Assembly (NCBI GenBank): GCA_040285855.1
Contig: JAUFOQ010000013.1
Coordinates: 1,984,001 to 2,048,000, forward strand
Reading direction: 5' to 3'
Source: Eukaryota sp. GEM-RC1
Lineage: Eukaryota
DNA: 64,000 bases
Positions within the stretch are counted from its first letter, which is position 1. Each line of letters opens with the position of its first letter. Of this stretch, positions 18,693 through 58,153 are shown in pieces. The notes below the pieces were generated by a model. It worked only from the letters and a program-made list of their open reading frames with translations, made no database searches and was not told where the DNA came from. Position numbers and translations under genes: made by a program.

Positions 18693-19227
18693 TCAAATGT
18701 CTTCAAGACTTCACTGTGCTAACCTCCTCACTTTTTGATCATAAATCTTTCTATTTTCTCTGAAATCAACTGCTGCATCTACATTCGCTGGAGATTCAGC
18801 TACAATTATTCAGAAGAATCAACATACCGTTGGGATCCACCAGCATTGACAACACGGACAACACAACTGATAAAGGGGACTGTACTGGACTCCATCTCTC
18901 TTCTGGAAGTTCTCCTGACATGACAAGATCTGATTCATCAGCACCAGGACGATGTAGGATGCTGATACATACTTCCCCCGAAGGATATATGTTGGGGTTA
19001 TACATTGGTGTGATAAATTTCATTGTAGGTGGCTCCATTGGATAGTTTTCAGGAAACTGCATAACTGCTTGAAACAAACCTCCTTCAAGTGGTGTATCGG
19101 GAGGTCCAGTTATGGCTACACGCCGTCGAAATATATCTTCGTTTTCAAGCCCAAAACTTATGCCTTCAACTGGTTCTTGCTGGTACTTTGTGAATTGTCT
19201 TGTTAGAAGTAACTGGCTGTGACGCAT
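18693..19227 (-). pseudogene. duplicate UBE2G/Ubc7-type E2, probably decaying
   Basis: Near-identical to 19612-20146 but with W-to-R in FRWRV and a CGA-to-TGA change six codons before the end; only about 26 bp of upstream sequence was duplicated. Confidence 0.6.
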
Positions 19228-19611: not shown

Positions 19612-20146
19612 TCAAATGTCTTCAAGACTTCGCTGTGCTAACCTCCTCACTTTTTGATCATAAATCTTTCTATTTTCTCTGAAATCAACTGCTGCATCTA
19701 CATTCGCTGGAGATTCAGCTACAATTATTCAGAAGAATCAACATACCGTTGGGATCCACCAGCATTGACAACACGGACAACACAACTGATAAAGGGGACT
19801 GTACTGGACTCCATCTCTCTTCTGGAAGTTCTCCTGACATGACAAGATCTGATTCATCAGCACCAGGACGATGTAGGATGCTGATACATACTTCCCCCGA
19901 AGGATATATGTTGGGGTTATACATTGGTGTGATAAATTTCATTGTAGGTGGCTCCATTGGATAGTTTTCAGGAAACTGCATAACTGCTTGAAACAAACCT
20001 CCTTCAAGTGGTGTATCGGGAGGTCCAGTTATGGCTACACGCCATCGAAATATATCTTCGTTTTCAAGCCCAAAACTTATGCCTTCAACTGGTTCTTGCT
20101 GGTACTTTGTGAATTGTCTTGTTAGAAGTAACTGGCTGTGACGCAT
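19612..20146 (-). CDS. ubiquitin-conjugating enzyme E2, UBE2G/Ubc7 class
   Basis: FPENYPMEPP, NPNIYPSGEVCISILH, acidic loop, ERWSPVQS; a 28-nt intron GTATGT..TAG gives ESPANVDAA..RSLEDI stop. Confidence 0.92.
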
Positions 20147-34134: not shown

Positions 34135-34913
34135 TAGACCTGTGCACGACTCAACTCAACTCGACTCGACTAGAAATTTATCTGAGTCGACTCGACTCGG
34201 CTCTACGAATCGTGTAGTCGACTCGACTCGACTAATTATTTATCTGAGTCGACTCGACTCGGCTTTGAGTCGACTCAAGTCGACTATTGAGTAGCGACAG
34301 TAACTATAGCCCAATCACTGAAACTTATTCGTCTAAAAAATTGCAAAATGTAGGATTTTTTTATAACAAGAAACAAGAAAAACTATTAGTATACAGTCTA
34401 TAAGTATTGAAGTAGCTATAACACAAATTTATCACCACGAAAGATGCTCAATGACTGCAAACACACAGATGCTCTAATATTTTCGTCACTCAAAGAACGA
34501 GAAAACTCATGGTGGGGTATGATTCTCCCGAAATAGCCCAGTGACAGCGAAGAACGGTTTAAGCAGTTCTGGGCATAGATTGAGAGTAGATTCCTCATCT
34601 GGAGAAAGAGCTGAATTCTACAGGTCTTTGTTGGAGGTAAACACGTTCCAAGATCAGAAACAAGAAACTGGTTTAACAGAAATCAATTGAGCATTACATG
34701 TAGTAACGTTGTTAGTATACTACACTCAATTATTTAACCACAAAGACGAAAGTCAATTGGTGTTGTTTCAGTATTCTGTATTGAACTATTTAATGGAAGA
34801 TAATATCTATAAACCACATGTAGTGTGATTTGATGCAATGTGATATATGACTTGACTCGACTGCTGTAGCGGAGTCGACTTAGTCGACTATTTGAGTCGA
34901 TTGCACAGGTCTA
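34135..34913 (-). mobile_element. hAT deletion derivative retaining a dimerisation-domain remnant
   Basis: TIR TAGACCTGTGCA..CGACTCAA; 8-bp TSD GTGCCAAT (34127-34, 34914-21); peptide LLSI..RSLSDENIRASVCL. Confidence 0.88.
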
Positions 34914-38052: not shown

Positions 38053-38117
38053 CACAAGATGTGTTTTACAAGATGTGTAATACAAGATGTGTTTTACAAG
38101 ATGTGTAATACAAGATG
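38053..38117. repeat. 14-bp repeat ACAAGATGTG(TTTT/TAAT) overlapping the PIF1 stop codon
   Basis: About 4.5 units; the same unit recurs at 41431-41545. Confidence 0.9.
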
Positions 38118-40607
38118 AAACTATCAAAATTACCTATATTGTCCAATCTTTTCAAAATTAAATATAATTCAAATAAAACACACATACCAGTCTTTTCATC
38201 ATTTTTCAAATACTCTTTCAAAACATGAAACAATTCCACAATCACATCACTACAATAACGTTCATCAACATTATCCTTATTAATCACATCGGTAATGTAA
38301 CAGTTTCTTATTGTTTTCACTTCCATACTTGATGCAGATTCAGATCCAATACAATCTAGTACATTATCGACAATTGACTGAATTCCAATAGTTAAGTCCA
38401 CTCTCAATTGTTTTGAAGTAGCAACACGATTATACTCCAAAATAGGAGACAGTGATGTTGTTTCATAATTCACATTGTCAGTTTGTTGATATTCACATAT
38501 GGAATCACATTTTTCATTTTCAAAGCTTTCAGTCTGAACTTCCTTGAGACAAAATCGTTTTTCATCATCAATAAGAGGAAACACTTGGGAACTTGTTCTT
38601 TCTATACCAGCACTGACATTCTTTTTTAATAATAAAATCTTCGTTGGTAAAGAGGTTTTCTTCAAACGGGGAAGTGATGGTAGAATACTTTTGCTTCGTG
38701 GTAACTGAGGAAGTTTAGACTTATTGACACCAATCTCTGGGGAATTTTTGTTAAAAATTGAGTCACAATTAATAAATTTGGGATGAATATTAGTTTCATC
38801 TTCTTCATCATTTACCACAAAATCATCTAAACTTGTTGAAATTGTATCACTGTCAGATTCATCACCAGAATCGGATCCTGATAGTAGTGCTTCTGTTTCA
38901 AATAAATTTGATTTGTCTAAATGATTTTTGTCCAAGTCAATAATTTGATTATCATTATTTTCAATAATTTGTTCATCAACATTATCAACAACAACTTCAT
39001 CAACAACTTCATCAACACAATGAACATCTTCAGGAACAACAGCATCATCCATAATTGGGTCACTCGATTCTGCACAAAAGTTTGCAAACAATGAATTAAA
39101 ATGATTGAAATCTCGTTGAAGACAATGTTGATTTCCCAAAACATACAAATCAATAGTGGATGGCTTAACAGGATGAAAAGTTGAATAACACCATTGATGC
39201 AATTCCAAATTTGGTACTGGATAACTTCTTCCAATGCTTAAAATCTTTAAACTCCTCCAAGACCTAACCCTACTTAAGGTCACATAATGTTGGGCATATT
39301 CCCAAAACTGGATAGCAACTTCAATCCCGTCAATTGTTAAACCTTGGGATCGATGCACTGTTATCGCCCAGCAAGGTCTTAGCGGAAACTGAATTCTTTT
39401 CGCCACTTGAACAGGTCTTCCGATTTCGTTCAAGTGTTCGATAGCAAACCTTGACTGACTGATTCTTTTCGGTTCTGCTTCAGCGTTGAACCGAACATCA
39501 ATATATGTATCTGAAAAATTAACAATAACTCCTTTTGAACCATTAACTAGTCCAAGTTCAGGTTTATTTTGAGTGTACATCACTTGTCCACCAACAACAC
39601 AGTCAAGTTTTTTTTCAGCAAAGTCATCTAAACGATTTTTCAGCACAGAAGTTTCAATGTCATAATATTTTTCCAAATTAGATTCATTGACCGGAAATCT
39701 AGAACTTCTTTTTCTAATTTGAGATTTTAATTCAGATTCATTGAATTTGTCAACAGCTACAAATTCAATTGAATCTGAATTTTTGCCCGAATTTTGAATT
39801 GTTTTAAATTTTCTCTAGCAACATCAGTATTCTTTCCGTATAAAATTGTTGGTTTTCAACAGATTCTGCTGTTTCGAAATGATTACGCAGAATTGATTTC
39901 ATAAAATTATCAAAAAGACCCAATCTCAATTGATTTAGAAAATTAAATTGGGAATCTGATTGCTGTCGAATACTACCAGCCAGTTCACAATATCTAAAAT
40001 TTAAATTGTTCCAAGCTCTTGATGAAAAAGCGAAATCAGAAATTACCACTTTTCGATTTCCTTTTCCATCAAGACTTTTCACAACAGGGGTTAATTGAAG
40101 AAAGTCCCCAAAACAAATTATCTGAATTCCTCCAAATGGTTTCTTCGGGGAGTGACATTTTTGCGTGTGCATAAGTTCGCCCAAAATGTCACTCGCCCGT
40201 TGAAACAAATTGGAGGACAACATTGAAATTTCATCAATGATTAACATTGAATTTTTTGGAGTAATTTTTTTTAACAATGATTTGACATTTGATGGCATAC
40301 ATTTAATAACATCATGTATGGATTCTTCTTCTTTCATAAACTTATAACCAAACAGTGAGTGTATGGTCTGTCCACCAAAAACAGTTGAGGCAACCCCAGT
40401 TGTTGCAGTGAAGAAGATTTCACCATTAGCACGCATGAGACGAGATCCGACGTTACTCCACCAGTATTTGAGAGCATGCAAAAGATAAGATTTTCCTGAT
40501 CCTGCACCACCAGTGACAAAGAAGTTGTGTCTGCTGGTAGTGATTGCGTTAAAGATCTCACGTTGGTCATCTGTGAGATTGATGTTGTGTATAGTGGTTG
40601 GTGCCAT
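38066..40607 (-). CDS. PIF1-family SF1B helicase with long acidic C-terminal tail (frameshift near 39810)
   Basis: GGAGSGKS, ATTGVAS, IIDEISM, FGGIQIICFGDFLQLTPV, QFPLRPCWAITVHRSQGLT, YVTLSRV. Confidence 0.93.
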
Positions 40608-41430
40608 TGAGTTGATGGATTGTTTGAGCGCAGGGAAACTTGGTCTTCATCAAATTTCTCTTTCACTTCAAACTATGACTTTATCCTTGAAATGGGACTG
40701 TATTTCAATGGATCCGACGAGTTCAATATAATCTCACATTTCCGCAGTTCGCGACTTCAAGTCCTTTTATATTGATTCTGTGAACATTTGTCCTTCCATA
40801 CGATTCATATGCAAGCATTTTCTATATCACACCAGTAGTAGTGATGCAGGATGTGTGTTTGTATGTTTATATGTATCATCTCTGACTTCTTTTTGTAATA
40901 GTAAACTTCGTTTTAACATCTATGTCTTCTTGTTTATAGATCAAATCTTACTTTCAAACCAGTATGATATTACTCAGCGACATTACTCAGCGACTAACTA
41001 ATACATCTAGCACCGTCTTCCAATAGAATCAACACAAAATGTTAAAAGAGGAAAAGAGGGAATGTGTTTCCGATAAGTTTGGCGAGAAGTGTAAAGCAGT
41101 GGATTGACCAAACAATAAAGAGTACGCGTAAGTCTGTTTGACTGGGATTAGAATTGTGATGTCTTGATGTTATCATAGAAAAGATATGCAACGACGATAC
41201 GCAAACGAGACACTAGCTGTTTATTACACAAGAAGGAGAATCAAAGACCAAGGGGTAACAATATGGCATTTAACATGTGTATCGGGTGTATGTCTTCAGC
41301 AAATGTCACTAGCCTTCAGTTTGGGGAGTCACATAACTCTAAAAGAACGAGAAGTAACAGAGTGTGGCTTCGTTGTGGATATGAGTTTGGATGAAGAAAA
41401 TGTGGATGTAGATACAAGACTGGATGTGTA

Positions 41431-41545
41431 ACACAAGATGTGTTTTACAACATTTGTAACACAAGATGTGTTTTACAAGATGTGTTTTACAAGATGTGTA
41501 ATACAAGATGTGTAATACAAGATGTGTAATACAAGATTTGTAACA
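41431..41545. repeat. 14-bp repeat ACAAGATGTG(TTTT/TAAT), about 8 units
   Basis: Read directly; lies just downstream of the stop of ORF 41554(-). Confidence 0.9.
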
Positions 41546-41553
41546 ATATTAAT

Positions 41554-42333
41554 CTAGTTACACAGATACTTACAAACATACTTCACTACACTATCATTAA
41601 ACTGCAACAATTCATCACATAAATTATCCACATCAATCTCATCATTACCTGACATTTTCCAAGTCAAAACATGTTTCAAATCAACAAAATCACTTCGTTC
41701 TAAAATAAAACTAAACAAATTGACAACTCCAGTATAATCATTACAATTACCTTTTGCTAAAACAATGTTAACAAAAATCAAAACAAACTTTGAAACAGAC
41801 AAACAATAATCATTGTCCTCAAGTAATAACAACAGTTTATCTTCAATCTTTTTAAAATAAACAAATCTTAAATGACCATCATCATGAAGTGAACTTTGGA
41901 GGAGTACAGGAATTAATAAAGTTGTAGAAGATCGAGAACTGTGACAAAATATTATACCAACTGAACAAGCAAAACTATTGATCAGTAAATGCAAATGCTT
42001 CAAAAATAAACAAGTGTCATCATTGAGACAACAATGAAGAAGAATATCAATTAACCCTGTCCAATTGAGAAAACTGTTGAGTAGAGGCGTGAACTGCCAA
42101 AGATGAGATACTCTGATTAAGACTTCATCAACATTAGAAGTTTCTGATGAAGGGTAGAACAGAGTTGACACAAGATCTTTTAAGGATGTTGATATAGATA
42201 TGGTCACAGAATCATCTCCTAAAGAAGTACAATGACAACAATTGCATAAGGTTATCAAACTTCTGTTGCATTGTTCATGAAACTGTGCTAACAGACTTGA
42301 CATCACTTCAAGAGAAGGTTCGTTCAAAGACAT
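41554..42333 (-). CDS. hypothetical Leu/Cys-rich protein
   Basis: About 260-codon open frame; no recognised motif. Confidence 0.5.
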   Translation of the reverse strand: MSLNEPSLEVMSSLLAQFHEQCNRSLITLCNCCHCTSLGDDSVTISISTSLKDLVSTLFYPSSETSNVDEVLIRVSHLWQFTPLLNSFLNWTGLIDILLHCCLNDDTCLFLKHLHLLINSFACSVGIIFCHSSRSSTTLLIPVLLQSSLHDDGHLRFVYFKKIEDKLLLLLEDNDYCLSVSKFVLIFVNIVLAKGNCNDYTGVVNLFSFILERSDFVDLKHVLTWKMSGNDEIDVDNLCDELLQFNDSVVKYVCKYLCN

Positions 42334-42376: not shown

Positions 42377-43018
42377 ATGAACTCATCAACAAACGTTTTG
42401 TCTCGGAAACGTCGTCTTTCTGCTTATCAGAGGAAGTATGCATCTAAACATCAAGATGTATACAATGTCTTTTCTTTTACTGAGACAAAATCAACTCCTT
42501 CAACTTCACCTTGCAATCTCGGAATCAATGGAGATTATATCTTAATCACCCGAGCTGCTGATAGTACTTCTCATATCGCAGTGTCCACCAACAATACAAC
42601 ATGGTTTAAAAATGTTGTTGGTGATAATCTTAAGGAAAACATTGAATTCTTTATTAACAAAGAAACTCATATTCTTGAAGAAAAGACTGGTACCACTAAT
42701 TCCTTGTCATCTCAAAATTTATATAATGTTTTGATTCAAGATCAATCTGACTCAGCAATAGACTTGTCTGATTTTGCAGAACATGAACAACATCAAAAAG
42801 TTTCATGTTCTGCAAGACTTTCTAAGATGAAGAAGTCTAAATGTCCAAAGGCTGTTAGAGAAGAAAACTTATTGAATGAAAAAGAAGAATCAAGTAACTC
42901 AAGCAATGACTTAGAGTCAGAATCAACTGGAACAACTGAGATTACTTCGACTCCACTCCCTCCTCTTAAGTCTCTTGTCAAAAAATCCAATTTTACGAAG
43001 AGTCCTTTTGAACTTTAG
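42377..43018 (+). CDS. hypothetical Ser/Thr/Lys-rich protein with NLS-like RKRR
   Basis: 213-codon ORF divergent from 42333(-); no recognised motif. Confidence 0.5.
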   Translation: MNSSTNVLSRKRRLSAYQRKYASKHQDVYNVFSFTETKSTPSTSPCNLGINGDYILITRAADSTSHIAVSTNNTTWFKNVVGDNLKENIEFFINKETHILEEKTGTTNSLSSQNLYNVLIQDQSDSAIDLSDFAEHEQHQKVSCSARLSKMKKSKCPKAVREENLLNEKEESSNSSNDLESESTGTTEITSTPLPPLKSLVKKSNFTKSPFEL

Positions 43019-43390
43019 ATATATCTTCCCTTCATTATGTACATGAAAGAAACCATCATATACAATAAAGATTTTCTGACCATATAGTGAAAAAAAGTGA
43101 GAAGAGATGTTGGTTGTTGACAAACACGACATGTTGAAGATGAAATTGTATTTCAATTCTAGACTTTTTCTTCACACCAATTATGCGTATGAATCAAGTA
43201 TAATTCTAATTTCAGACTATGTGATGCCAAAAGTAAGTTTTGGTGACGATCAGTGCTTACTCTTACATCGGTTCCAGTTGCTCAGAGAGTTCCTGAACAG
43301 ATTGCTATCTTCCGGCTTTGTTCCGCCGCTAATGTATGTTCATCTCTAACCGCAGATAACCTCTCAACCCCTTTCTCTCTGATTGTATAT

Positions 43391-43458
43391 CCTTCCCCAA
43401 AACAACAAATAGGGATAACATTCTCGTTAACAAGAGTCATGCCTTGAAAGTGTTGGTT
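43391..43458 (+). repeat. single diverged copy of the CTCGTTAACAAGAGT hairpin unit
   Basis: TAGGGATAACATTCTCGTTAACAAGAGTCATGCCTTGAA aligns with the 120-bp array unit. Confidence 0.85.
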
Positions 43459-44360
43459 CTTCTCTCGTTGTTGCTACAATTTCTCCTCTCCATGTCAATA
43501 CGCTCATTATTACCAGTCTCCTCCTTCTTCTTCAAAACATCAACCTGTAAAGACAAAGTTATTCACCGCAGTAGCTGTAAAATCAACAGTGATACTTAAA
43601 TCAATAATAGTTGTCCTTAACAATAGAACTTTACAAAACGTAATTAACTGAGCTTGAGATCCAATATTTGTTTGATGACTCTTGATGACTCTTGGAGTAG
43701 AGAGAGGAAAGAACCAAAGAGCAAACGTTGATGTTGAGGATAAACTTTTTCGTTCACTTGTTCAGCAAGTACTTTTGGGGTCGTTCGCAAATCGCTGACA
43801 TCTATCCTGTTTTTGCCTCTTACTCACTCGTTCCTTTATTAGTCTAATCCTGTATTAGTTATTGTAATACATTAATCCACGTGAATGACAAATTCAACAT
43901 GGAATGAATAAACCAAACTTTTTTGCTCAAGATAGTCCCAATCAATAAACCATTTGTATAATATTTTTAATTTTTATTGTAATGTATCCCTTGATGTTCA
44001 GTGATAACAATCTGTTATAAATAAATATATTCTCACAGCCGAATGCTGGCTGTATAATGGTCATACAGCCAGGAATCGGCTGTGAAAATTGCAAATGACT
44101 TCCATAAGAAATCAAATAGCTTAAAATATGTAGCAAAATGTACTGATTCTTTAAATGTATATGAAATCAATCAATCAAAATCACATAAAATTTGAAAACT
44201 ATTTAATAAATAGTTAACCTTAACCAGTGGTCTCTTAATCGTCTCACACTAAAGCAACAACCATACAGTTGTTTATAACACGTAAAGAAGAATTCGTGAT
44301 GAAAAAGTTGTCACTTGAAGTATCAAATTGTTTCACATATATTTCCTCAAAATGCAATTC

Positions 44361-44921
44361 CCTCCCCCAAAGTCAGCAATTAGGGATACCATGCTCGTTA
44401 ACAAGAGTCATGCATTGAACTATTGTTGTTTTTGGTGTTTTGCTTCCGTCGTTGAAACTGATGACTTTCTGCTCACGCCTCCTCCCCCAAAGTCAGCAAT
44501 TAGGGATACCATGCTCGTTAACAAGAGTCATGCATTGAACTATTGTTGTTTTTGGTGTTTTGCTTCCGTCGTTGAAACTGATGACTTTCTGCTCACGCCT
44601 CCTCCCCCAAAGTCAGCAATTAGGGATACCATGCTCGTTAACAAGAGTCATGCATTGAACTATTGTTGTTTTTGGTGTTTTGCTTCCGTCGTTGAAACTG
44701 ATGACTTTCTGCTCACGCCTCCTCCCCCAAAGTCAGCAATTAGGGATACCATGCTCGTTAACAAGAGTCATGCATTGAACTATTGTTGTTTTTGGTGTTT
44801 TGCTTCCGTCGTTGAAACTGATGACTTTCTGCTCACGCCTCCTCCCCCAAAGTCAGCAATTAGGGATACCATGCTCGTTAACAAGAGTCATGCATTGAAC
44901 TATTGTTGTTTTTGGTGTTTT
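44361..44921 (+). repeat. tandem array 1: 120-bp unit x4.7
   Basis: Identical units at 44361, 44481, 44601, 44721 and 44841 (partial); open frame gives 40-aa repeats with LVNKSHA..YCCFWCF. Confidence 0.97.
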
Positions 44922-45359
44922 CCTCCCCCTGATGTCCTCTCCAGGTTGTTGCATAAGAAGACCCCTGATGCTTATTCGATGGATACACCTACTAAAGGTA
45001 TCTCAGTCATGGCTGCATCTGGGATCCATGGGTGACTTGGCGCTAGGGCCAGACAAAGGTTCCTTTCCTCGCGATCCCCCCAGATGTCCAGCTAAGCACC
45101 ACGCATCGCGTCATGCTGCTCCAATATCTTGGATTCTACAGTTTTCTGCACAAAAACGTTTGACAATTGATAAACAATGTTCAAGTTACGCCATTTGTAA
45201 TCAATGTATGCTCCCCCGACAGCCTGGTATACTTCCACAACAGCATGATTCGACCAGGCCCGTCCAATGCTGTTTAACCGCTCATACTCTTGATTTCTCG
45301 AAATTCATTCGCGTTGTAAATCCTGCCTGTTGTCTTTCGTTAACAACAATGTTGACGAT

Positions 45360-46414
45360 AGCACTAACACTGTGTCATCAGTATTTGCAAAGATCTAAAT
45401 TTTTTAAAGATACCTTTCCAACGCCAGATTCTCTTTCCCCATTCACAGTCGATTCAGCAAGAGAAGTAAAAACTTGGCTGCGAGAACTGACCCCACCAAA
45501 ACATTTTACCAAAAATTACATGGAAAAACTACTCAATGAAATTGTAGAATATGCTGAAGCTGCCGATGGCCAAGCTGTTCTTTCCAGAACAAACAACTGA
45601 CGAAGCTGATGAATATGAACAAGTACAGGATTTTAATAATACATCTATTGATATGTCTGTAAGAATTGAAAACTATGCTTCCCGATTACTCAATGTTGAT
45701 GCAAAGTTACAAGATACCTGGATGTTTCGATCACTCTATCGCTTTTATGTCTTTGCCAAGACATATTTATTTTCAAATGAAACTGATCAAGAGAATTACC
45801 GAAATCAACAAATTTCTTCAATTTATTTGTTGGTATTTATGCTAGGTTATCAAAGTTACATTATTTCCACTTCAGAATTTGAAAATTGTTTTGAACCCTT
45901 TGTAAATCTAATGAACTTCCCATTTGTTTTCATTAGCTATATATTCAATGGAACAACACACGAAGAAGTTGTTGAACAAGCAATTAAAGATGCTTTGAAA
46001 TATAAGACAGAGAAAGCCAAAGTTATTGATTTATTACAAGATGTTGAAGAAACACCCGAAGATCTTACGGAAATTCTCCTTGATGTTAGTAGCTGCTGAT
46101 GATACTAAACCAATTGATGTAATGTCACTCAAAGTGCTTACAATTTCACAATGCACCAGTTCAACACGAAACCAAACTCGGTATTGTTTGCTAATTGGGG
46201 AATTTTGGAAAAATTTTCCGAATTTAGGTGTCAGATATCAATTATTATTGATCTTCCAGACACGCCAACAACATTTCCTTTTATTCAACAAAGAACTGAA
46301 AACGCACTGTTTGTTATCATGGATAACAAACAACCCCAAAGCAAAAAGTGGAATACTTTCCACGCGTTTTTGAGGCAAAATCTTACAGATGTGGAATACA
46401 AAATGAGGGAATAG
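45360..46414 (+). CDS. hypothetical protein, frameshifted; C-terminus weakly resembles a degenerate SF2 helicase C-terminal domain
   Basis: Overlapping ORFs 44932-45600, 45551-46099, 46026-46373, 46151-46414; SVLFANW..IIIDLP..FIQQR. Start uncertain. Confidence 0.4.
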
Positions 46415-46724
46415 TCTTTATTCATTTTTTCGTTCTTTATAAATTGTTTCGTTCTTAGTTTTTATGGTTAATTCTACACCTCAGACAGTGACTTACTTGA
46501 TCTTATTTATATGTTTTCTTGCCAATTTTTCGATTTACAAGTCTTTGTATTTTACATATATCCAAAACATAATATGTTTGGACATACACATTACTGATTA
46601 GATTTAATATTGTATTCCATTAAAATCAAGCAAAATGAATATTTTGAAATCTTTTGATTTTGAACATAAACCTATAATTCAGTCAATTATAACTTGCATA
46701 CAAGAATACATTATCGTTTATTAT

Positions 46725-47296
46725 TCACTCTTTTGCTGCTCTAACAGGAATTCTAGTACTACTTCGTCGATCATTTCTATTTTCAGGTAGATTATCAAGA
46801 AACGGAAAAAAGATATCTACCAGTTTAATTCGATATCTCATGTCCACCACCTCTTGTTCATCTTGACTAGAATCATCTTGACTAGAATCTTCTTCACTAA
46901 CGTCTATTTCATCTTCACTGTCAATGACAATAACTTCATCTTCATCATCATTTTCATCTTCATTTTGAATATCAGATACCAAAGTTCTCCCCTGGATTAG
47001 TGAGTTAGCATTATCCACTGTAATCCATCCACAAATACATGAATTTGTCGGTTGCAGATGAGGAATAGAATACTTCACAGAATACGATGGCAATTTACAA
47101 AAAACGGTTGAACAATTAAAGATTGATAATTTTGATAATGCAGTGAATCGTAAATATTGAAATTGAACTTATTATTTTCGTTTGACAATTCAACCAAGAA
47201 CCAATGTCCATAAGTCTTTCTTTTTGAACCCTTTGGAACATTTTCACTGTATGAGTCCAAACAAATCGGGATTAAAATTTTGACACTCAATGACAT
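46725..47296 (-). CDS. Ulp1/C48-like protease domain with acidic tail (frameshift near 47090)
   Basis: ILIPIC..GHWFLV..IYDSL then QPTNSCICG, followed by a SIM-like EVIVIDSEDE. Confidence 0.6.
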
Positions 47297-47576
47297 TTAT
47301 GAGAAGTGTTTTTACAACTCTGAGAAGAACTGACAACCAGTATTACTTAAACGCAGAGGAGTAGATCGGGTATAGATTCTATATTTCTGTGAATAAAAAG
47401 ACTGTCTACACTTGCTGTTTATGAGCTAAATTAATCACCCAATAAGACCATAAGATAATTCCGACATAGCACTGTATGAGAATATGGTGACATTGTCATT
47501 GACCTAGACAAGTGACATCAAAGTCTTGTATAGTACGAAAAGTCTTGATTCATTTCTATCTACTGTACTGTTGGAT

Positions 47577-50500
47577 ATGTCAACAGTTCCTCTTCTCCCT
47601 ACTAACAGAACAGATTCTCCTCTTTGTGCCAATCCTTGCCCAATGAGCTACGTACCCATACTCGTTAACAAGAGTTATGCAGTTTGTAGTTGTTGTTGTG
47701 GTTCTGCTCTCGCCGCTACTAGTACAGATTCTCCTCTTTGTGCCAATCCTTGCCCAATGAGCTACGTACCCATACTCGTTAACAAGAGTTATGCAGTTTG
47801 TAGTTGTTGTTGTGGTTCTGCTCTCGCCGCTACTAGTACAGATTCTCCTCTTTGTGCCAATCCTTGCCCAATGAGCTACGTACCCATACTCGTTAACAAG
47901 AGTTATGCAGTTTGTAGTTGTTGTTGTGGTTCTGCTCTCGCCGCTACTAGTACAGATTCTCCTCTTTGTGCCAATCCTTGCCCAATGAGCTACGTACCCA
48001 TAATCGTTAACAAGAGTTATGCAGTTTGTAGTTGTTGTTGTGGTTCTGCTCTCGCCGCTACTAGTACAGATTCTCCTCTTTGTGCCAATCCTTGCCCAAT
48101 GAGCTACGTACCCATACTCGTTAACAAGAGTTATGCAGTTTGTAGTTGTTGTTGTGGTTCTGCTCTCGCCGCTACTAGTACAGATTCTCCTCTTTGTGCC
48201 AATCCTTGCCCAATGAGCTACGTACCCATACTCGTTAACAAGAGTTATGCAGTTTGTAGTTGTTGTTGTGGTTCTCCCTCGCGAAGTGTTTTAGACCTCT
48301 CTTGTACATTTTTCTCATCCCGTCCCCCATTCAAAAAAGATCTCACCATGGATGGTGACGTGGAATCCAATCCAGGGCCAGTTTCTCAACAAGCTTTAGA
48401 TTGTTTGCAACCTGATCATTTGGTAGATGATGAAGTCTTTGTTGAGTTTTCTAGATCCATATTTCAAACATATTTCGAACTACAAGCATGTAGTGTAGAT
48501 TTCGATGATCTTTTTATTCAACCTGCTCTTTTAAAGGGACATAATCTTTTTCCTGATTTATCGTTAGATGTTTTTTCAATGACAAAGTCAATGTCACTAA
48601 GGCAAAAGGATACAACTATCTCATAATCCCACTAAATAATTCCATGACAGAACCGGCCAATGATGGAACACACTGGGGGCTAGTTATTGTCGATTGTGTG
48701 CGTTTGGAAGGTATATTTATTGATCCACAGTGTGATTGAGATTCTTCAATAGAATCTTCGTCTTTGAAACAGATATTCAATATAGTTCAAACAACTTTTG
48801 GAACTTATAATCTCAAACCAATTCCTGTTGCAACCAAGCAAACTTTAAACGACGGTGTAATTTATGTCCTAAAATATATAGAGAAATTTATTGAACTTTT
48901 GTCACAATTACGATCAATCCCTGGGCTGTATTTGGAATCCAAATTGCTTGAAATAGCCAACATAAACACTGTAGAAGTTCGCCAAGAGATTCAGAACCGT
49001 TTGAGTCGATCAGAGACTAAACCCAAAAAAGTTGTTTCTGATGAGACTTTGACCTCTGTGGAACCGAATAACTGGGTCGATGATGAAGTTATACGACTAT
49101 ATTGTAAGAAATTATTTGAAATTTATGGTCTAGGTTACGATTGGACTTCTTTTATCCCCCCTTCAGTGATGAAGTATTACATCACTAGTCACAATCTGTT
49201 ATCTTTTCTATATGATAAAATTCACGAATGTTTAAATCGAGGCAACAGATTTCTTATTGCTCCCTTGAATGATGGATTTACAGAACCAGCACAATCTGGT
49301 ATTCATTGGGGTTTGATTATCATTGATTGTCAAATCAGGAACTGGATGTTTATTGACCCATATTACGATACTGGTGATTTTGCACAGGATGGAAATATTA
49401 TCAAGACTTCTCTGCTGACAAATGTCCTTTCTATAGTAGTATCAGTTCTTAGCATTCTTGAATTCGAACCAATTGTTTTTCCTGTTACGCGAAAGCAGAC
49501 GCCCAATGATTGTGGAATCTATGTTATAGAGTATATTCACCAATTTTTGAACATTCAAAATGAACTTCCAAGCCTGTCTCATGCTGAAGCGTCGTTGCTT
49601 AATATGGAAATTGATGCTCTTGCTGTTCGAAACGAAATCTACTCGTATCTTGAATCACTTAATCCACCAGAGGAAGAGGAAGAAGAGACTGAGGAAGAAG
49701 AAGAAGAAGAGTCTGAAGAAGAAGAACAGCTAATGTCCAAAGAATCGTCTATTAGGTTAACAGACCTACCACCAAAATTGCAAGAATCTATTTCTTTATA
49801 TCCACCGTCAATGCAAAAGGATATACTTATCATGGAAGAAAGTCTACACACTGAACCTGTAAAAGAAGTTGTTTCTGTAGACACCTTAGTCTCCTCATCT
49901 AAAAAAGAACTACATAAACCTCAAAAAGTGGAATTACTCCTCCATTTAAGAAATCGAATCTATCAGAATTAACAGAAACAGAAGAAATCCCAACATTTTG
50001 TTTAATTGATTTTAAAACAATGATTACTGATGCAAAACGACTTAATCCAAGAATTCTCAAATCACCTAAAACTGTATTGCCTAAAAAAAGTGTCGACTCT
50101 GATGATATTGAAGATGACTCTGAGGAACCAGAGGATGCTGATATACCTAAAATCAAAGAAGAAGTTGAAGCATCGAGAGCAGAACTGTTTGCAAATCCTT
50201 TGGATAAAGAAGACAAAATAATCTTTATCAGTCTCAAATTTATCTATGCTAATTTCACTTCAACTGTTATTTTTAGTAAAAGAACATAAACAATACATTT
50301 GAAAATGTCGAAATAATTGTTTGTGCTTCAGAAGAAGCCATGATTGGGGAACTTATCCAAGTTTTATGCCAAACAAAACCCAGATTGTTGATTGGTTATA
50401 ACACTGATGAACTTTTGTTTCCTTTTTGATTAAACGGTGTGAAATGTTCAAGATTCAGACAAATTTTCATTTAGATAATCCATACAGACCCTACGTACCC

Positions 50501-53442
50501 AACTGGTTTCATAGATGGTGTAAGCTTTGCAATTTTGGACCTTTTGTTTCTCTAGACTTGGCAAATGTTACAAAGTCTACTTATGTCTTCAAAGGTGGTA
50601 GAAGTTTGGAAAATGTTTGTTCAAAGTTGTTTCGTAGACACGTACCGAATTTAATTTTGTCGTCATTAGAATTAACTACGTACTTCACAGAATTTCGAAA
50701 AGTACCAGGCATAACTGTTAACAAGGAAATAGAGAAAGAGTTTAACCTACTCGCACACAACAAGCAAACCTTCAAATTGTGGACTGATAATGCAAAAGTA
50801 ATTACTCTGGTTGAAGATTTACTTCAACGAATTGACTGTTTATCTGAATTACATGAATATTTCTTTGATGAAGAAACTCAACATGTTCTAGAGCGCCATC
50901 CAATTAAAGTGGTGAAAAAGGGACTGGAGAAAGTTATTAAAGATCAGGATAATATTGTCTTAATTAAAGACTGTGTTATCCGAAATCAAAGAGCAACAGT
51001 AAGGGGTTCTAATTTTTTGAAACATCTCCTTATGTGTGAGTTTGAAACACGTGGATGTGAATTAAATTTGATGAATCCTCATTACTTTCGTCCATATCTC
51101 CTAGAATCTTCTGTTTCGGAATCAAAAGAACGAGATTTAATGTACGAACATGATTTTTTTGAGAAACGACTTCGTGAAATGAAGTTAATGTACGAACATG
51201 ATTTTTTTGAGGAACGACTTCGTGAAATGGAGTTAATGAATGAACATGATTTAGATTCGTATCCATCAGAACTTTCTGATTTGTTGGCATTAAATGATCG
51301 TAAATTAATGAAGAGCCATGATACAATGCCTGATTCTGATGATGCATCTGTTTCTGATCCGTTAGAACCTTCTGATTTACCCCTCTACACTAAGTTTTCC
51401 GTAGTCTTACCAGATTTGGAAAAAACTGCTTAAACACGATTCTATTAGACAAGTATTGAGACGGATGTATGTGAAGAAATAAACTGGTTCTTCAATTACA
51501 AAGTCAGAACTAGAAATGTCAAGAGCAGAGGCTCAAAAAGTGATTGACGATTTCCAAAAATCTTCAAGACTAGAAATGAACGAAAAAGAAAAAATTGCAT
51601 TTCACTACTTGAACAACTTTTCTCCACTTCTACAACAGTTGTCTGATGAAATTGGAACAAATCAAATTTCATTTCCTGATTCTACGTCAATGTCTCCCAT
51701 ATTTCATTACACTGCCAAACAAATTTCTACAAATTATGCAAACAATATGGTCAAAAATTTTCATGATTATGTATTCAGATTCTTTAATCTGGTAACAAGA
51801 AAGAAGGTCAGACTTGAACAAATCAATGATCAAGTTAGTAAGAAAAAATTGATTTCGAAATTGAATTCAGTCAGAGATTCGATTATCAATGGAAATTTTG
51901 ATGACATTCCAATTGAAGATCACGAGATTTTCCCTAATCAACGTGAAGAACTAACGTTGAGGTTTTTTGCGTATTTAAAATTTTCTTTGTTTCCAATGTT
52001 TTCAAAAAGAACATTTACTATTTACAGAAAGCAAAGCCGACAGAGTTAATTTCTCATGCTCTGTACATCAACCGAACAATACAATCTTTGTGTTTGGTTG
52101 ATGGAAAACCAATCAGTGTAAACAACCCTTTTCCAATGACGAAGACATTGATTCCTCAGCATATTCGTTTGGACACAGGTTGGATGAATGATAGATTTGT
52201 TCATATACGTGGCAAAAATGCAGATGAAATAAGAAAAAAGGTCTTTGATCAGGTCCTTACTGACAAAGCTGTGGCACCAACAAAATCATTTGTCTTTAGA
52301 TATTCTTCAATTCTGACTGATGGAATTTCTTGTTGTTTGGTTTTAATGAGGAAAGATTTAGTTGATGAAGATGGAAATACTTTCAAAGATTTTACTGCTA
52401 AATCTCTCGGAACTTCGGAAAGATACATTCACTCTTTATCAAATGAGAATATTCACGAATTACAATTGAAAGAAAAAAAGAATTGTCGGTGTCGATCCCA
52501 ATGAATATGATTTAATGTATTGTGTTTCAGAAAAGACAGTCGATGAGCTTAAAGAAGAAGATATTTCTGAAAATAATCCACTCAAAAAACGATTACCCTT
52601 AGAAATCAGAAGTAAGAAAAGAGGAGGAATTAAGAAAAGAAAGAAACAGTTACAAGATTGGAAAAATTCGAATAATGATGTAAAAATCAAAGAAAAAGAC
52701 TAAGCACAAATGGAAGAAGTTTAATTACACAGCGGGAGAAAGAGCTTATGATAGGAAATCTAAAAAATATCGTAAATCTGAAAATAGAAAACTGAAAGAA
52801 TTTTCTATCGAATCACCAGACGAAACTGTCACTGAAAGACAACTTAAAGATTTTTTGGTTCTCCACCCTGATAGAATTCTTGTAACAGGAAGAGATGTCG
52901 TTAACCAATTCTCCAATGCTGTATCAAACGGGGAAAGAAAGTCGTGTTTCAGTGACACATTTGAAACATATATTAAAGAAGCTGAACGATATAACGTATA
53001 TTTGAGTTCTTTCTACGAAGATGACTGGTTTAGAAAGAGGAAATTCCAAATTTATTCTAATAACCAACGTTCGGAGAAAAACATGCTAGAACGCTTCAAT
53101 TTAACATATGGACCTCCAGAAGACGTCGTCATTGGCTATGGGGATTGGAGCTCAAAAGGTAAAACAAGAAAGTCTCTGTCTCTCGAGAGATCTAAAACTC
53201 AAACAACAGATCTCGAGAGTGGTAAGGATACTTTGGCGAGAGACCAGAAGAAGAAGAAGACTGCGACCAAGAAGGAGAAAACTTCAACAGGAAAGGCTCG
53301 TAAGAAACCAACATGTGGAAATTGTGGCCAAGAAGGTCATAACAAAACGTCATGCAAGAATCCACCAAAAGAAATGAGTTCGCCTAAAAGAAGAAGCGTA
53401 AAGTCAGTCAAGAAGAAGAAGCTCTCTCGTAAAGGACTTTAG
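47577..53442 (+). CDS. inferred polyprotein: Cys-rich repeats - 2A - Ulp1 x2 - PolB exonuclease-like - Fanzor1-like - CCHC; disrupted in this sequence
   Basis: Abutting same-strand ORFs whose breaks fall inside or between domains, mostly at A/T homopolymers; two in-frame stops (TGA 48737, TAA 51480). Continuity is inferred. Confidence 0.6.
47610..48275 (+). repeat. tandem array 2: 114-bp unit x5.8
   Basis: Units at 47610, 47724, 47838, 47952, 48066 and 48180 (partial); one C-to-A variant at 48003; 38-aa repeats with LVNKSYA.CSCCCG. Confidence 0.97.
48339..48380 (+). other. 2A / StopGo ribosomal skipping peptide
   Basis: DLTMDGDVESNPGP matches D(V/I)ExNPGP exactly, in frame between the repeats and the first protease domain. 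Confidence 0.9.
48390..49650 (+). CDS. tandem Ulp1/C48 (SUMO/NEDD8-protease-like) domains; the first lacks the catalytic Cys
   Basis: Domain 1: LVDDEV, IIPLNN, GTHWGLVIVD, FIDP, KQTLNDGV. Domain 2: WVDDEVI, IAPLND, GIHWGLIIID, FIDP, KQTPNDCGIYV. Confidence 0.85.
49990..50860 (+). CDS. family-B DNA polymerase 3'-5' exonuclease-like domain, probably inactive
   Basis: IPTFCLIDFKT, DKIIFIS, SEEAMIGEL, PRLLIGYNTDELLFPFLIKRC, SLDL..RSLENVCSKL; the Exo I E, Exo II D and Exo III YxxxD are not canonical. Confidence 0.65.
50900..53442 (+). CDS. Fanzor1-like (eukaryotic TnpB homologue), C-terminally altered
   Basis: FLKHLL, HYTAKQISTNYANNM..FHDYVFRFFN, PFPM..IPQHIRLDT, ILTDGISC, RuvC-I IVGVDPN (Asp 52494-96), FNYT..ER, RKRKFQIY..QRSE, VVIGYGDWS; no RuvC-II/III before the stop. 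Confidence 0.85.
51138..51250 (+). repeat. 48-bp in-frame repeat, about 2.3 copies (LMYEHDFFE.RLREM.)
   Basis: Read directly; inserted in the Fanzor N-terminal region. Confidence 0.85.
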
Positions 53443-53495: not shown

Positions 53496-53595
53496 TGTTA
53501 GGTCAATAATGACGTGTAATTATGACCTATGCCTTTTTATAGAATTGTACTTTAATAAACCTATCTTCACCATCGTTTTACGCGTAGAAGCAACA
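53496..53595 (+). repeat. 5' LTR
   Basis: TGTTAGG...GCAACA, identical to 57587-57686. Confidence 0.97.
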
Positions 53596-53625
53596 GTGAT
53601 CACTGACGCTATTAGTCACTGAACC

Positions 53626-54381
53626 ATGGACCGCCCTAGAACCACCCCCATCCTCAAAGGACTTACCTCAGACCAAGTACAACAATATCTTGATGATTTC
53701 AAGATCGCCCAGAAGAACGATGACTCTCTCTCCCTGAGAGATGGAATCCCAGACACCATCTTGGAAGGCATTTACCTTCTAAAGCCTCTGGCCGACCCTG
53801 ACTCTGAAGAAGACCCACACGAGGGATTTGTCTCTGCCGAAGAAGAGCTGAAGGGTTTCTTCGAGAGCCGTCAAGCGATACCCAGTCTCCGTTCCCTTGT
53901 CTCATCTCTAGCAAACTTAAGACCTGATTTCAAAGAAAGAGATACGGAGGCAAGATACCTCGCGTTCGCCGCAAAGTTTCAGAGATTGAGGAAGAGAGCC
54001 AGTCACCTCAACCTTGACCTCCCATGGTGGATGAATCAATTTGCCGAGAAGGTTCGTCCCACCAGGATTGCCGAAGACTTCGTAGAACGCATTAAAGCCG
54101 GTTCCATCCCCTCGATGACTATTCTGCTACAAGAAGTCATTGATGAATGCAGCGCTTTTGAACGACTTGATGGGTACCGCACGCCCAACAAACCTTCGTC
54201 CCGCAACCACCATAGCACCCAGTCCCTCACGACCAGTGGAACTCCCAAAGCCCTCACCAAACTCACGGACAAAGAAAGAACCGAGCTCTCTCGATCTGGT
54301 TCCTGCTTTAGATGTAGACAGAAGGGTCACGTGGCTGCGATGTGCCCTCTCGCTGTGAAAAAAAGAAATAAACGCTATTAA
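53626..54381 (+). CDS. gag: Gag with CCHC nucleocapsid knuckle
   Basis: CFRCRQKGHVAAMC. Confidence 0.9.
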   Translation: MDRPRTTPILKGLTSDQVQQYLDDFKIAQKNDDSLSLRDGIPDTILEGIYLLKPLADPDSEEDPHEGFVSAEEELKGFFESRQAIPSLRSLVSSLANLRPDFKERDTEARYLAFAAKFQRLRKRASHLNLDLPWWMNQFAEKVRPTRIAEDFVERIKAGSIPSMTILLQEVIDECSAFERLDGYRTPNKPSSRNHHSTQSLTTSGTPKALTKLTDKERTELSRSGSCFRCRQKGHVAAMCPLAVKKRNKRY

Positions 54382-57300
54382 CTATGAAAGCCCCCCAATC
54401 CCTCCTATCCTAATCCCTGTACTCATAAAGGAAGAAGAAATTCAAGCCTTTGTGGACCCCGGATCAGACTGCAGCCTCATCCACTCAGACTTAGTGAAGA
54501 GACTACAACTCCCCCTCTTTTTTCACCAAAGTACAACTGAAAGGAATCCACGGCACCTGCAGAACCTCCTCTGGTACATCCCAAGTTCAATTTGAACTAC
54601 TCGAACCACATAATCTGATCTCCACAGCCAAGTTCATCGTCTATGACACGGCTTACCCTATAATCTTAGGCCGTGAAATTCTTCACGATCTAGGACTTCT
54701 GTCGGAAAAAGGTCTATTCTTGCATCTTAAAGGCAAAGAGGACTTTTCAGACGATGACTTAGAACCCGAAGTACCAGATCCCTGTCAGCCAAACCCTTGG
54801 AACAAGGACGATGACCCTAACGAAGTATCCAAAATCAGAGTACAACTAAATCCCTCTCAAGCATCACAGATATACTCTCTGCTACAACACCATGTCGAAG
54901 TCTTTGATACTAAGCCTCATCCCGATGGTCTAGACTGCCCAGATTTCGAAATCCCCTTCCTAGACGAGACCAAAACTACCAAAGCAAGACCTAGGCCCAT
55001 GAAACCCAGGCAACTCGAATTAGCCAAATCACTTATGAAGGAACATGTCGACTCTGGTGTCGCAAGAGTTGTTAGCGAACCCCGGTTTAGTAGTCCCGTA
55101 GTTCTCAAAGAATATGCTGATAAGAAACCACGACTTTGTGGCGACTACAAGAAGATCAATGAACTGAGCATCACCCACGCTGCTGAAATTCCACGAATTA
55201 CTGACATTATCCAAAAGATAGCGAACGCCACCTATGTAGCCGTCTTCGACCTAAGACGGGCTTTCTACCAACTTAAAGTGAGCCCGAGAGATGTGGAGAA
55301 AACTACTATCTCTGTACCAGGCCTAAGCATTCAATACCTCAGAGCGCCTTTCGGATTAAAAAATGTTCCGGGATACTTTCAAGACCGTCTTGGGTCAATC
55401 TTCAACACTGACTACTCCGACATCTACATCGATGACCTCATCGTTTTTGGAACCGACTTTGAGAGGTTCAAACAGAGCCTCGACAAGACCCTCGGAAAAG
55501 TCAAAAGCATCAGAGCTCGCCTGGCCGCCCCAAAAGCTGTGATCTCAGATTGCTCTCACAAATTCACACTTTTAGGGTTCACATTCCTTAACCAAACGAA
55601 ATCTATCAGTGAGGACAAACTCAAGCCCATAAGAAACGCCACATACCCCGCCACCATCAAACACCTACGCTCCTTCCTCGGGGCAACAAACTATCTAAGA
55701 GAATTCATTCCCAATTTTGCAGACATCACGAGGCCCTTATACGACCTACTACAGAAAGGAGCCAAATTCATATTCTCAAAGAGCCACAAAGAATCGTTTG
55801 ACGTCTTGAAGCACCACGTCATTAACTCAGTCCCTCTCCAGCTGCCGACAGAAACTCAGAAAGTTATTGTGACGACAGATGCTTCCGATTCTCGCCATCG
55901 GAGGTGTGATCTGGGCCGACAATACAGCCGACGAAAATAGTCCCCTTGACAAAAAGAACTTAGTCCCTTTGTGTTTTTACTCAAAGAAATTGAACAAGAC
56001 GCAGACAGCCTGGTCCACGAACAAGAAAGAGTTGTTCGCCATAGTTTCTACCCTGTGTCTCTCAAGCCTATCCAACTTCCTGATCTCTCATCCTTTCACA
56101 CTTTACACCGATCATCGCAACCTTGTCCATCTCCACACAACAGAATCTCCCATGATCTCCCGATGGAGACCCCTACTCAGCCAATTCTCTTTCAAGATCG
56201 TCCACACACCTGGAAAAATAAACTCCATGGCTGACTTCTTGTCGAGAAAACCCGACCACCTTCTTCCACACAGAGAAGTCCTAACCACCGAATCACCAGT
56301 TAACAAGACCTCCGACAACATAGTGTCGCACCTGATCAAAACAGTTCACTCTAATGGACACCTAAGCCAGGAACGCACCCTCAACCACCTGAAAACTTTG
56401 GGCTTCAGTGCCCCTAACCTCAAAGACTGGGTCAACGACATTGTTTCCAACTGCGGAACATGTCAAAAGGCGTCAAACATCCCAAGAAAGACACCAGCCC
56501 ACACAGGCTCCCTGGGATCATCAATGCCCTTCGAAAGCCTCCATCTAGACTGCATAACTTTACCAAAAGACGCTAAAGGATTTAAACATGTACTAGTAAT
56601 AGTTGATGGCTTCTCGAAATTCACTTTCTTAACACCTTTGAAGAATCTCTCAGCGGAAGCAACATGTGATATCCTCACTTCTAAAGTGTTCAGCATTTTT
56701 GGACTTCCTCTACAAGTCCACTCAGATGGAGGAAAGGAATTCGCAAACAACCTGGTCAAAAACCTCCTCTTGAAACTAGGAATCCAACAGACCTTTTTCT
56801 TTCCCCAACCACAGCCCATCAAACGGGCTAGTAGAACGAGTTAACCAAGAAGTTGTCAAACTTACACGAAAACTGTCCACTGACACTGCTAATCATACAG
56901 ATTGGAGTGATAAAATCCCTCTCATCCAGCTCATTCTCAACTCAGAACCCTCTTCCACTACCAAGTTGTCACCATATTCCTTATTATTTGGTAGACACAT
57001 TAAGCCTAGACGTAACCTACTCGATGTACTACTGTCCAGAAATGACACCACAGACAAAACCTCAAACACTCATTCCTTCGTTGATCAGATATCCAAAGAA
57101 ACCCTTAAGCTTACTTCTGAAGCTATCAGTCGAAAGAGGAAAACCGTTGATGCCACCCCAAATGAATTTCTAGTCGGTGACCTGGTACTCCTCGACGATG
57201 CTCCGAACAAACTGTTGAACTTACTAGGACCGTTTCAAGTGACCAAGAAACATGGCAACTCCGGTTACGAGATCGAATCAATAGTAGCTGACAAGAAGAG

Positions 57301-57592
57301 GACTGTGTCAGCATATGATTTACACTCCTTCTCCCCCAACATCCTTGACGAAAACGCCAAAAGACTTGCTGCTTCAGACTATGATGAACATCTTGTCAAC
57401 CAAGTTATTGACCACGACCCAAAGAACGAATGGTTTCTGGTCAGGTTTTCAAATGGAGTTGAAGCTTGGCAACCACTGGACAACCTCAGAGATGGCAGCA
57501 AGATCAATTGTTACCTACAAGACTACTGCCTAAAGCACAAACTAAACCTCACCCCTAGAAAGAGGGGAAGGAAGGGGAAGAAGCAATGTTAG
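54382..57592 (+). CDS. pol: Pol (protease, RT, RNase H, integrase, chromodomain), frameshifted
   Basis: AFVDPGSD, RLCGDYKKIN, PFGLKN, YIDD, TDAS, YTDHRNL, H..H..CGTC, HSDGGKEF, VNQVIDH..FLVRF..WQPLDNL. Confidence 0.93.
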
Positions 57593-57686
57593 GTCAATAA
57601 TGACGTGTAATTATGACCTATGCCTTTTTATAGAATTGTACTTTAATAAACCTATCTTCACCATCGTTTTACGCGTAGAAGCAACA
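57587..57686 (+). repeat. 3' LTR
   Basis: Identical to the 5' LTR. Confidence 0.97.
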
Positions 57687-58153
57687 GTGGTTTCGATACT
57701 CTAATCAAAATGAAAATTAACAAAGTTGTGTACTTTGGGAATATCCATTTGAGTTGAGAACCACATACGTTTTTATTGTTGGAGTACAAGACAAGTTATG
57801 TTGTGATCTTACCATGTTGGTCTAGACTCTAGATCCATCAAGAACTTCTACCGAACAATAACACAAACCACGAAATCGTAGTACTATATAGTAGTTCCTC
57901 AAAGTATTTGAATCGATTGCTGGACGAACAATATTAGAACTACTATGGGGTATTCTACAATGTTACACCACCAGCTGCCCAGTCATTGCTTTAAAGACAT
58001 TGGAATTCAATGTCCTTAAATCAATGACTTTACAGTTGATGTTTTGTATATTACAATCTTTTCTCGATCTTTTCTGGTCCTGGTTTCTATCCGAAATATA
58101 TATAAACTGGTTGTCTACTTCTCAACCTATGATGACGTGATGAAAACTGACTG

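Follow-up and report, generated by a model that had tools for sequence, protein, structure and literature searches.

The question raised by this locus is what has been multiplied around one short sequence in a 64,000-nucleotide stretch of the Eukaryota sp. GEM-RC1 genome (contig JAUFOQ010000013.1; hereafter the window). The original prediction, made from the letters alone, held that a 120-bp unit, a 114-bp unit and a lone copy at 43391 share a 15-nt core, with a C-to-A change in one of six 114-bp units, and that all three loci form one long hairpin. Our analysis indicates that the two arrays very probably belong to leaders, which would be translated, with a layout in the order start codon, repeats, linker, 2A/StopGo motif and enzyme. 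The shared core was confirmed: CTCGTTAACAAGAGT occurs 12 times in the window, always on the plus strand, against a mean of 0.22 in shuffled sequence, and none of 100 shuffles reached 12. It stands alone at 43423, five times between 44394 and 44874 in the 120-bp array (44361-44921, 4.7 copies, 100% identity) and six times between 47661 and 48231 in the 114-bp array (47610-48282, 5.9 copies, 99% identity), where the C>A change at 48003 is the single core variant.

The original prediction also held that the units differ outside the core, and here the alignments say otherwise. All three unit types can be aligned over their full length, with 79 of 104, 74 of 103 and 78 of 105 columns identical (72-76%), and around the core they share the stretch CATNCTCGTTAACAAGAGTYATGC, of which the window holds no further copy. 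When the core was removed, four of the six flank pairs still scored above shuffles (0, 0, 4 and 14 of 500 as good; 53 and 127 of 500 for the other two). Since this homology spans the whole unit length, the alignments identify the three repeats as descendants of one unit of about 115 nt and not as distinct sequences converged on a core. The units have a GC content of 44-46%, compared with 32-35% in their surroundings, and are 99-100% identical across the whole period within each array; variable spacers were not found, in agreement with the earlier statement that the arrays are not CRISPR-like. The lone unit (43373-43500, plus strand; core 43423-43437) reads PKTTNRDNILVNKSHAL and then exits the shared frame directly after the core. 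No 2A follows it, nor is there a 2A relic above chance behind it (1598 of 2000 shuffles were equally good), and it is likely a decayed copy. Three further tests came out no better than shuffles: for homology among the sequences preceding the three loci, for another decayed unit at the lone copy, and for likeness in DNA between the joints that follow the two arrays.

Each array is open in the frame that reads LVNKS, and the unit lengths of 120 and 114 nt, already noted as divisible by three, keep it open, as does the 117 nt inferred from a 39-residue repeat in related proteins described below. By chance, judged from shuffled units, any one frame would stay open in only 17% and 14% of cases; a coding model ranked the LVNKS frame best of six, with scores of 0.12 and 0.09 (coding median 0.16, non-coding 95th percentile 0.02). 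A minus-strand reading (TLVNE), helicase-like by eye, scored below the plus frame and contains a stop in each 120-bp unit, and was rejected. Leader 2 (47577-48282, plus strand) starts with the ATG at 47577, contains the 114-bp array with six hairpin units and reads PCPMSYVPILVNKSYAVCSCCCGSALAATSTDSPLCAN; the change at 48003 replaces L by I in this peptide. In frame with the array follows the 2A/StopGo motif PFKKDLTMDGDVESNPGP (48327-48380, plus strand; GDVESNPGP at 48354-48380), giving a leader of 267 residues, and the frame order is ATG, 5.9 units, linker, GDVESNPGP and two Ulp1-like proteases. Leader 1 (44352-44921, plus strand) starts with the ATG at 44352, contains the 120-bp array with five hairpin units and reads PKSAIRDTMLVNKSHALNYCCFWCFASVVETDDFLLTPPP. 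Behind it lies a GC-rich (52%) joint (44922-45135, plus strand), which stands in for some 160 residues of the paralogs (linker, 2A and first domain): paralog residues 106-266 found no match in this joint, and GDVESNPGP was not found behind the array, where a weak 2A-like relic SQSWLHLGSMGDLALGP at 45001-45051 lies in a different frame from the array (29 of 2000 shuffles equally good). The gene body that follows (45136-46093, plus strand) is frameshifted and cut short. This copy of the helicase gene is likely decayed.

When the frame that follows array 1, a member of a cluster of 4, was looked up by exact match, three longer paralogs (P0007-9) came back, and it is their starts whose register the ATG at 44352 shares. 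They begin with M-PFSS and continue with the 39-residue repeat PNTTYRDNMLVKKSHALNYCCCCSPPVVEAKSSLSTPPS carrying 2, 3 or 4 cores, a linker, WLRNLTMDGDVESNPGP and the body, which in the two longer proteins reaches a DEAH/RHA-type helicase domain (best E 2.7e-6). Aligned from the same ATG, the paralog repeat is about 60% identical to array 1, whereas the gene bodies are 98-99% identical (147 of 150 and 166 of 167 residues to P0007). The lone copy matches the paralog repeat at 72% over 18 residues. A fourth paralog, P0001, has a different 27-residue repeat ahead of a 2A-Ulp1 start like that of the window (93%). Counting cores per leader gives 2, 3 and 4 in the paralogs and 5 and 6 in the window arrays, and an intact GDVESNPGP is present behind window array 2 and in all four leader-bearing paralogs retrieved. 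Read together, these comparisons identify one leader plan shared by two unrelated genes, in which near-identical bodies carry leaders of differing repeat number and type; such a variable leader is likely exchangeable between genes. The original prediction had placed the arrays at the 5' end of long coding tracts. The arrays sit within reading frames, not merely ahead of them. A frameshifted copy of the array end as source of the P0001 linker was not supported (146 of 150 and 80 of 100 shuffles), Pfam and PHROG matches to the arrays were repeat artefacts with 0 passing stretches, and single-sequence structure models gave no verdict on the leader (predicted local distance difference test score, pLDDT, 41) or on the gene at 41.5 kb (40).

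If the motif works as 2As do elsewhere, the repeat peptide would be cut off the downstream enzyme by 2A skipping. Its upstream context is near that of the picornavirus 2As PFKRDLTRDGDVESNPGP and WVRDLTMDGDVEENPGP (compared by eye with table rows of PMC11512398). According to the accessible text of PMC3708506, a 2A acts only if it is read from upstream and its activity is decided by context. Because register and upstream residues matter (accessible portion of PMC12338488), activity at this locus is not assured.

We next consider what within the leader is conserved. For both array units a hairpin of about 69 nt centred on the core is predicted, in line with the stem-loop of about 70 nt drawn originally, with a 70-nt window z of -2.96 (120-bp unit) and -2.42 (114-bp unit) and a core pairing probability of 0.7-0.8 in the array context. 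The claim of one hairpin common to three loci failed at the lone copy, where z was -0.31 and core pairs reached 0.14-0.38. Folds of whole units were not above shuffles (z -0.78, -0.35 and -0.84). Among 1500 composition-matched synonymous recodings, 12 and 17 beat the native fold of the 120-bp unit and 6 and 7 that of the 114-bp unit, while 187-288 folded as well as the lone copy; one of 21 coding controls reached p<=0.02 in this test. In a further recoding test on sense-strand RNA the counts were 8, 6 and 181 of 1000 for the 120-bp unit, the 114-bp unit and the lone copy. On the minus strand they rose to 82 and 84 of 1000 for the array units, and with DNA energies to 150 and 342 of 1000. The fold signal of the array units is thus specific to sense-strand RNA. 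No synonymous change separates the three units in the five core codons, and in nine neighbouring codons the synonymous and non-synonymous changes number 1 and 2, 2 and 2, and 0 and 3. A peptide alone, with free synonymous variation, therefore does not explain the conservation, since the core lacks such changes and the native codons fold better than recodings. Both arrays stop just past a complete hairpin, at offsets of 47 and 45 from the last core, and the paralogs do likewise (NYCCF), their core change N>K being located in the hairpin loop. A nearest-codon reading of the paralogs gives the same hairpin, a circular result in that codons were picked for closeness to the window units. Stem pairs changed on both sides number 4 of 16, equalled by 13 of 500 shuffles, with only three sequences, from which the structure itself was derived.

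On the strength of these data we tentatively favor the reading that the leader carries an array of predicted sense-strand RNA hairpins, released at the 2A, whose copy number tunes expression of the gene behind it. A unit of about 115 nt, set in frame between start codon and 2A, opens two different genes of a multi-copy, likely mobile element. The leader would be translated and then skipped off the enzyme, and because the 2A sheds the peptide it would only need to stay in frame; freed from other protein constraint, it could expand, diverge and move between genes. Selection would then act mainly on the mRNA hairpin. The hairpins would most likely slow initiating or early ribosomes or bind a protein, for which the element's own DEAH helicase is a candidate, and their number would set expression of the downstream gene. 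The multimerised cis-acting element of the original prediction is still the best reading of what is conserved, although its position in a translated leader and the 2A had been missed.

Several observations weigh against the reading of a hairpin array in a 2A-released leader. The 70-nt window was centred on the hairpin by eye and after the fact, and of 97 windows taken from the background 6 fall at z<=-2.4, while 6 attain -2.9 when the best of five sizes is used for each. Shuffles of the flanks match the native energy in 47-88 of 1000 cases for the 120-bp unit and 84-228 of 1000 for the 114-bp unit; with the core codons fixed, the numbers are 108 and 24 of 1000. Among six chimeras with swapped halves, four fold at -15.8 to -22.1 kcal/mol, equal to the natives, and two do not. 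The lower stems, whose pairing with different sequence had been offered as support, thus constitute weak evidence and add little beyond an A/C-rich 5' and a G/U-rich 3' flank. The compensatory change claimed for the upper stem is visible as G-C to A-U, but it involves a single pair; in the 114-bp unit a shifted register has an equal claim (0.43 vs 0.39), and at this position the lone copy shows U.C. That copy is also without a significant fold, and C>A at 48003 disrupts one stem pair and is a conservative change in the peptide. Changes of amino acid are scarce in the RD..NYCC block, which was picked by eye (2 of 16 vs 15 of 24), a pattern that peptide constraint would account for just as well. 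The DNA sequence is at hand for no more than three unit types. At the level of layout, window array 1 has no intact 2A behind it and does not share the frame of its gene, array 2 precedes an interrupted gene, and the P0001 repeat contains no LVNKS and bears at best a weak resemblance to the units (3, 25 and 22 of 100 shuffles). The paralogs, finally, are gene predictions read as proteins, in which predicted introns may have joined leader and body, so that their in-frame state is biased by annotation. A modest RNA signal atop a translated frame is a fair reading of the folding data.

In one alternative, selection acts on the cysteine-rich repeat peptide itself, which the 2A would release and which might, for instance, bind metal or associate with membranes; it would be made 1:1 with the enzyme, and the hairpin would be a by-product of its codons. 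The block LV.KS(H/Y)A...CC is kept across the 117, 120 and 114 types, the frame is open throughout, each paralog leader holds 6-14 cysteines and the one core variant is the mild L>I. If the peptide were the product, however, the absence of synonymous variation in the core and the superior folding of native codons over recodings of the same peptide would be left over, as would leaders that diverge much faster than the bodies and an unrelated-looking peptide at the same place in P0001; neither a family nor an outside homolog was found. We regard this alternative as rather improbable. A neutral coding minisatellite is improbable: a mildly self-complementary stretch would have been duplicated by slippage or unequal exchange and tolerated since the 2A detaches it, the core reflecting recent conversion between copies. 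Homogeneity of 99-100% marks the arrays as recent, the element has other minisatellites (14-bp at 38054 and 41423, 48-bp at 51137), and both the unfolded lone copy and the folding of most swapped halves are as such an origin would have it. Conversion and slippage sit less well with a 23-nt core kept in units that differ by about a quarter elsewhere, with a fold signal specific to RNA and the sense strand and not to DNA, and with arrays that were amplified independently at matching positions in two genes and stop past a full hairpin in each. Quite improbable, in our estimate, are internal promoter or enhancer monomers acting as DNA, incidentally transcribed and translated, with the core as a transcription-factor site. 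Such monomers lie downstream of the ATG here and not in an untranslated region, the paralogs alter the GTTAAC centre (N>K), and a double-stranded DNA site needs no sense-strand RNA fold; the 5' position, variable copy number and exchangeable 5' ends, the raised GC content and conservation at the nucleotide level speak for them, as does the promoter activity that L1 monomers add (available part of PMC9022269). The small-RNA array linked to Fanzor in the original prediction, with 114/120-nt products guiding or binding a Fanzor-like protein, is very improbable indeed, for although the same element carries both and the hairpin is repeated, there are no spacers, the Fanzor-like gene is broken and lies 3.2-7 kb downstream of the arrays (at least 3.2 kb from the nearer), the repeat goes with the helicase gene in the paralogs, Rfam gave no match, and described omega-RNAs come from the right end of the element, behind the gene (PMC10432273, as far as its text is available); a link between arrays and Fanzor is unsupported.

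The stretch of 38-53.5 kb is one multi-copy element, likely mobile to judge by its copy number. The window is eukaryotic, and among its contents are retroelements, a Mutator-like element (MULE) and host genes that are in pieces; a sigma-70 promoter scan has no bearing on such DNA. All named relatives of proteins from the element belong to Eukaryota sp. GEM-RC1, a free-living metamonad with a 48% repetitive genome in a long-read assembly (available text of PMC11316075); some frame breaks may be assembly errors because the genome is so repetitive and long-read assembled. On the left, a PIF1-like helicase (38066-40607, minus strand, E 1.8e-33) falls in clusters of 4 and 14 members; in the gene prediction for its paralog P0028 an FGGY sugar kinase is joined to the helicase, which likely reflects element-host read-through or a gene-model join. 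Two divergent genes (41554-42333, minus strand; 42377-43018, plus strand) fall in clusters of 10 and 5 members, and profile and atlas searches found no family for them. At or just behind the 3' ends of two different minus-strand element genes lies the same 14-bp minisatellite (ACAAGATGTGT core; 38054-38117 and 41423-41545), possibly a 3' signal common to these genes and a counterpart to the leader shared at the 5' end. An inverted repeat of 27 bp with a 7-nt loop (44029-44089; RNA z -7.5, DNA z -9.1), located between the lone copy and array 1, is far stronger than the core hairpins and might serve the element as a signal in replication or recombination. Broken minus-strand frames at 46930-47300, divergent from the 114-bp array, show Ulp1-like motifs by eye (LIPI..GHWFL..YDSL) and have no Pfam match.

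Behind leader 2, come the two Ulp1-like (C48) protease domains (48381-49660, plus strand; PF02902 E 1.8e-5), the first of them broken by a shift of frame near 48560-48626 and by a TGA at 48737. Judged by paralog P0044, the gene continues at 49918-51433 (plus strand), in pieces, with an acidic tract and a PolB-family exonuclease-like domain (PF03104 E 1.1e-9). Fanzor1-like frames follow (51483-53170, plus strand), broken by frameshifts and ending after a GYGDW stretch; they match the Guillardia theta Fanzor1 structure weakly and colinearly (E 0.11 and 0.16) and had no Pfam or NCBIfam match. The frame upstream of them holds a 48-bp coding repeat at 51137-51252, also present in paralog P0005, and at 53170-53442, after GYGDW, the frame shifts into a basic tail and zinc knuckle (CGNCGQEGHNKTSC) resembling the MULE at 16690, probably a rearranged end. 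A Ty3/gypsy element (53496-57689) adjoins the right side, and its insertion is recent because its 103-bp long terminal repeats are 100% identical. Within 38-53.5 kb no transposase, Rep or capsid was found, nor any of the marks of a Helitron, Polinton or MULE-type element (HUH-Rep, pPolB with integrase or capsid, DDE transposase, defined termini), in a copy that carries deletions and several frames without family. No family could be assigned to this large element of 10-14 copies, whose gene set comprises PIF1, DEAH helicase, Ulp1, PolB exonuclease and a Fanzor1-like gene. Elsewhere in the window, two near-identical copies of one frame, which we take to be ubiquitin-conjugating-enzyme-like, lie 919 bases apart (18796-19227 and 19715-20146), and related GACTCGACTCG-rich 31-bp repeats (11347-11419 and 34147-34292) are perhaps sub-terminal repeats of a small DNA transposon.

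Exact core patterns had no match in viral, metagenome or prokaryote contigs, protein-guided scans, including phages, found no relative, and atlas searches gave no usable match. A search with the three-unit peptide alignment had no match even though P0007-9 were in that collection, so that all these negatives carry little weight; among representative proteins one unrelated-looking repeat protein, P0046, was returned at 21%. Rfam, to which the original prediction had looked for help, returned only two unrelated weak matches for 42500-49000 at E<=5, and ARAGORN and ribozyme patterns gave nothing relevant. The literature searched holds no description of this leader or element; supplements of 2A surveys (PMC12338488 and two 2026 preprints) may already list these 2As.

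If hairpin number in a 2A-released leader does tune expression, then a 2A buys evolutionary freedom: a reading frame can house and amplify a regulatory RNA because the peptide is shed. This would give a reason for N-terminal 2As in mobile elements and add a metamonad DNA element to the described 2A settings, which in the accessible literature are viruses, non-LTR retrotransposons and NLR genes. A bolder version, doubtful in our view, is that of a portable cassette of copy-number-variable hairpins and StopGo, swapped between helicase and protease genes of a large, undescribed metamonad DNA element, in which the hairpins set the translation dose and are themselves read by the element's own DEAH helicase, with the peptide thrown away through the 2A. 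On that view StopGo would reach beyond RNA viruses and retrotransposons into a DNA element, and a cis-RNA would lie concealed in a throw-away reading frame. In either case the finding points to the 10-14-copy element itself.

Among known systems, the leader arrays are not omega-RNA, a CRISPR-like array or a recognisable ribozyme. With Fanzor omega-RNA they have in common only a Fanzor1-like gene on the same element; the arrays are at the wrong end of the gene, tandem and without a guide segment (compared with the available text of PMC10432273). Neither HDV-like (hepatitis delta virus) nor hammerhead ribozymes were found, with nothing relevant from Rfam in 42500-49000 and nothing from a pattern scan of both strands of 43150-48450, run with no positive control. 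Mouse L1 5' monomers likewise form tandem 5' units of variable copy number, but in the accessible part of PMC9022269 they are untranslated promoter repeats with a tether before ORF1, whereas the units here lie behind an ATG and in frame. The Pr77 hallmark of L1Tc/NARTc, an internal promoter and HDV-like ribozyme, is also a short, structured and shared 5' module before a 2A in a protist mobile element; as the sources available describe it, it is single-copy, while the module here is tandem, within the frame and has no HDV-like fold that we could find. Similar in layout is the N-terminal 2A of non-LTR retrotransposons (L1Tc, Ingi, CR1/L2/Crack), where GD(V/I)ExNPGP near the N-terminus parts a leader from the enzymes (PMC3708506, accessible text). 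Here no reverse transcriptase or APE lies behind the 2A in the frames seen (Pfam/PDB; paralog proteins may be incomplete), but a helicase, a C48 protease and a PolB exonuclease, and two different genes are served by a leader made of tandem hairpins whose number varies. The 2A itself is nearly identical over a context of 15-18 residues to picornavirus 2As of the DLTxDGDVESNPGP type (table rows of PMC11512398), and its setting here is not an RNA-virus polyprotein but a multi-copy DNA element in the nucleus of a protist.

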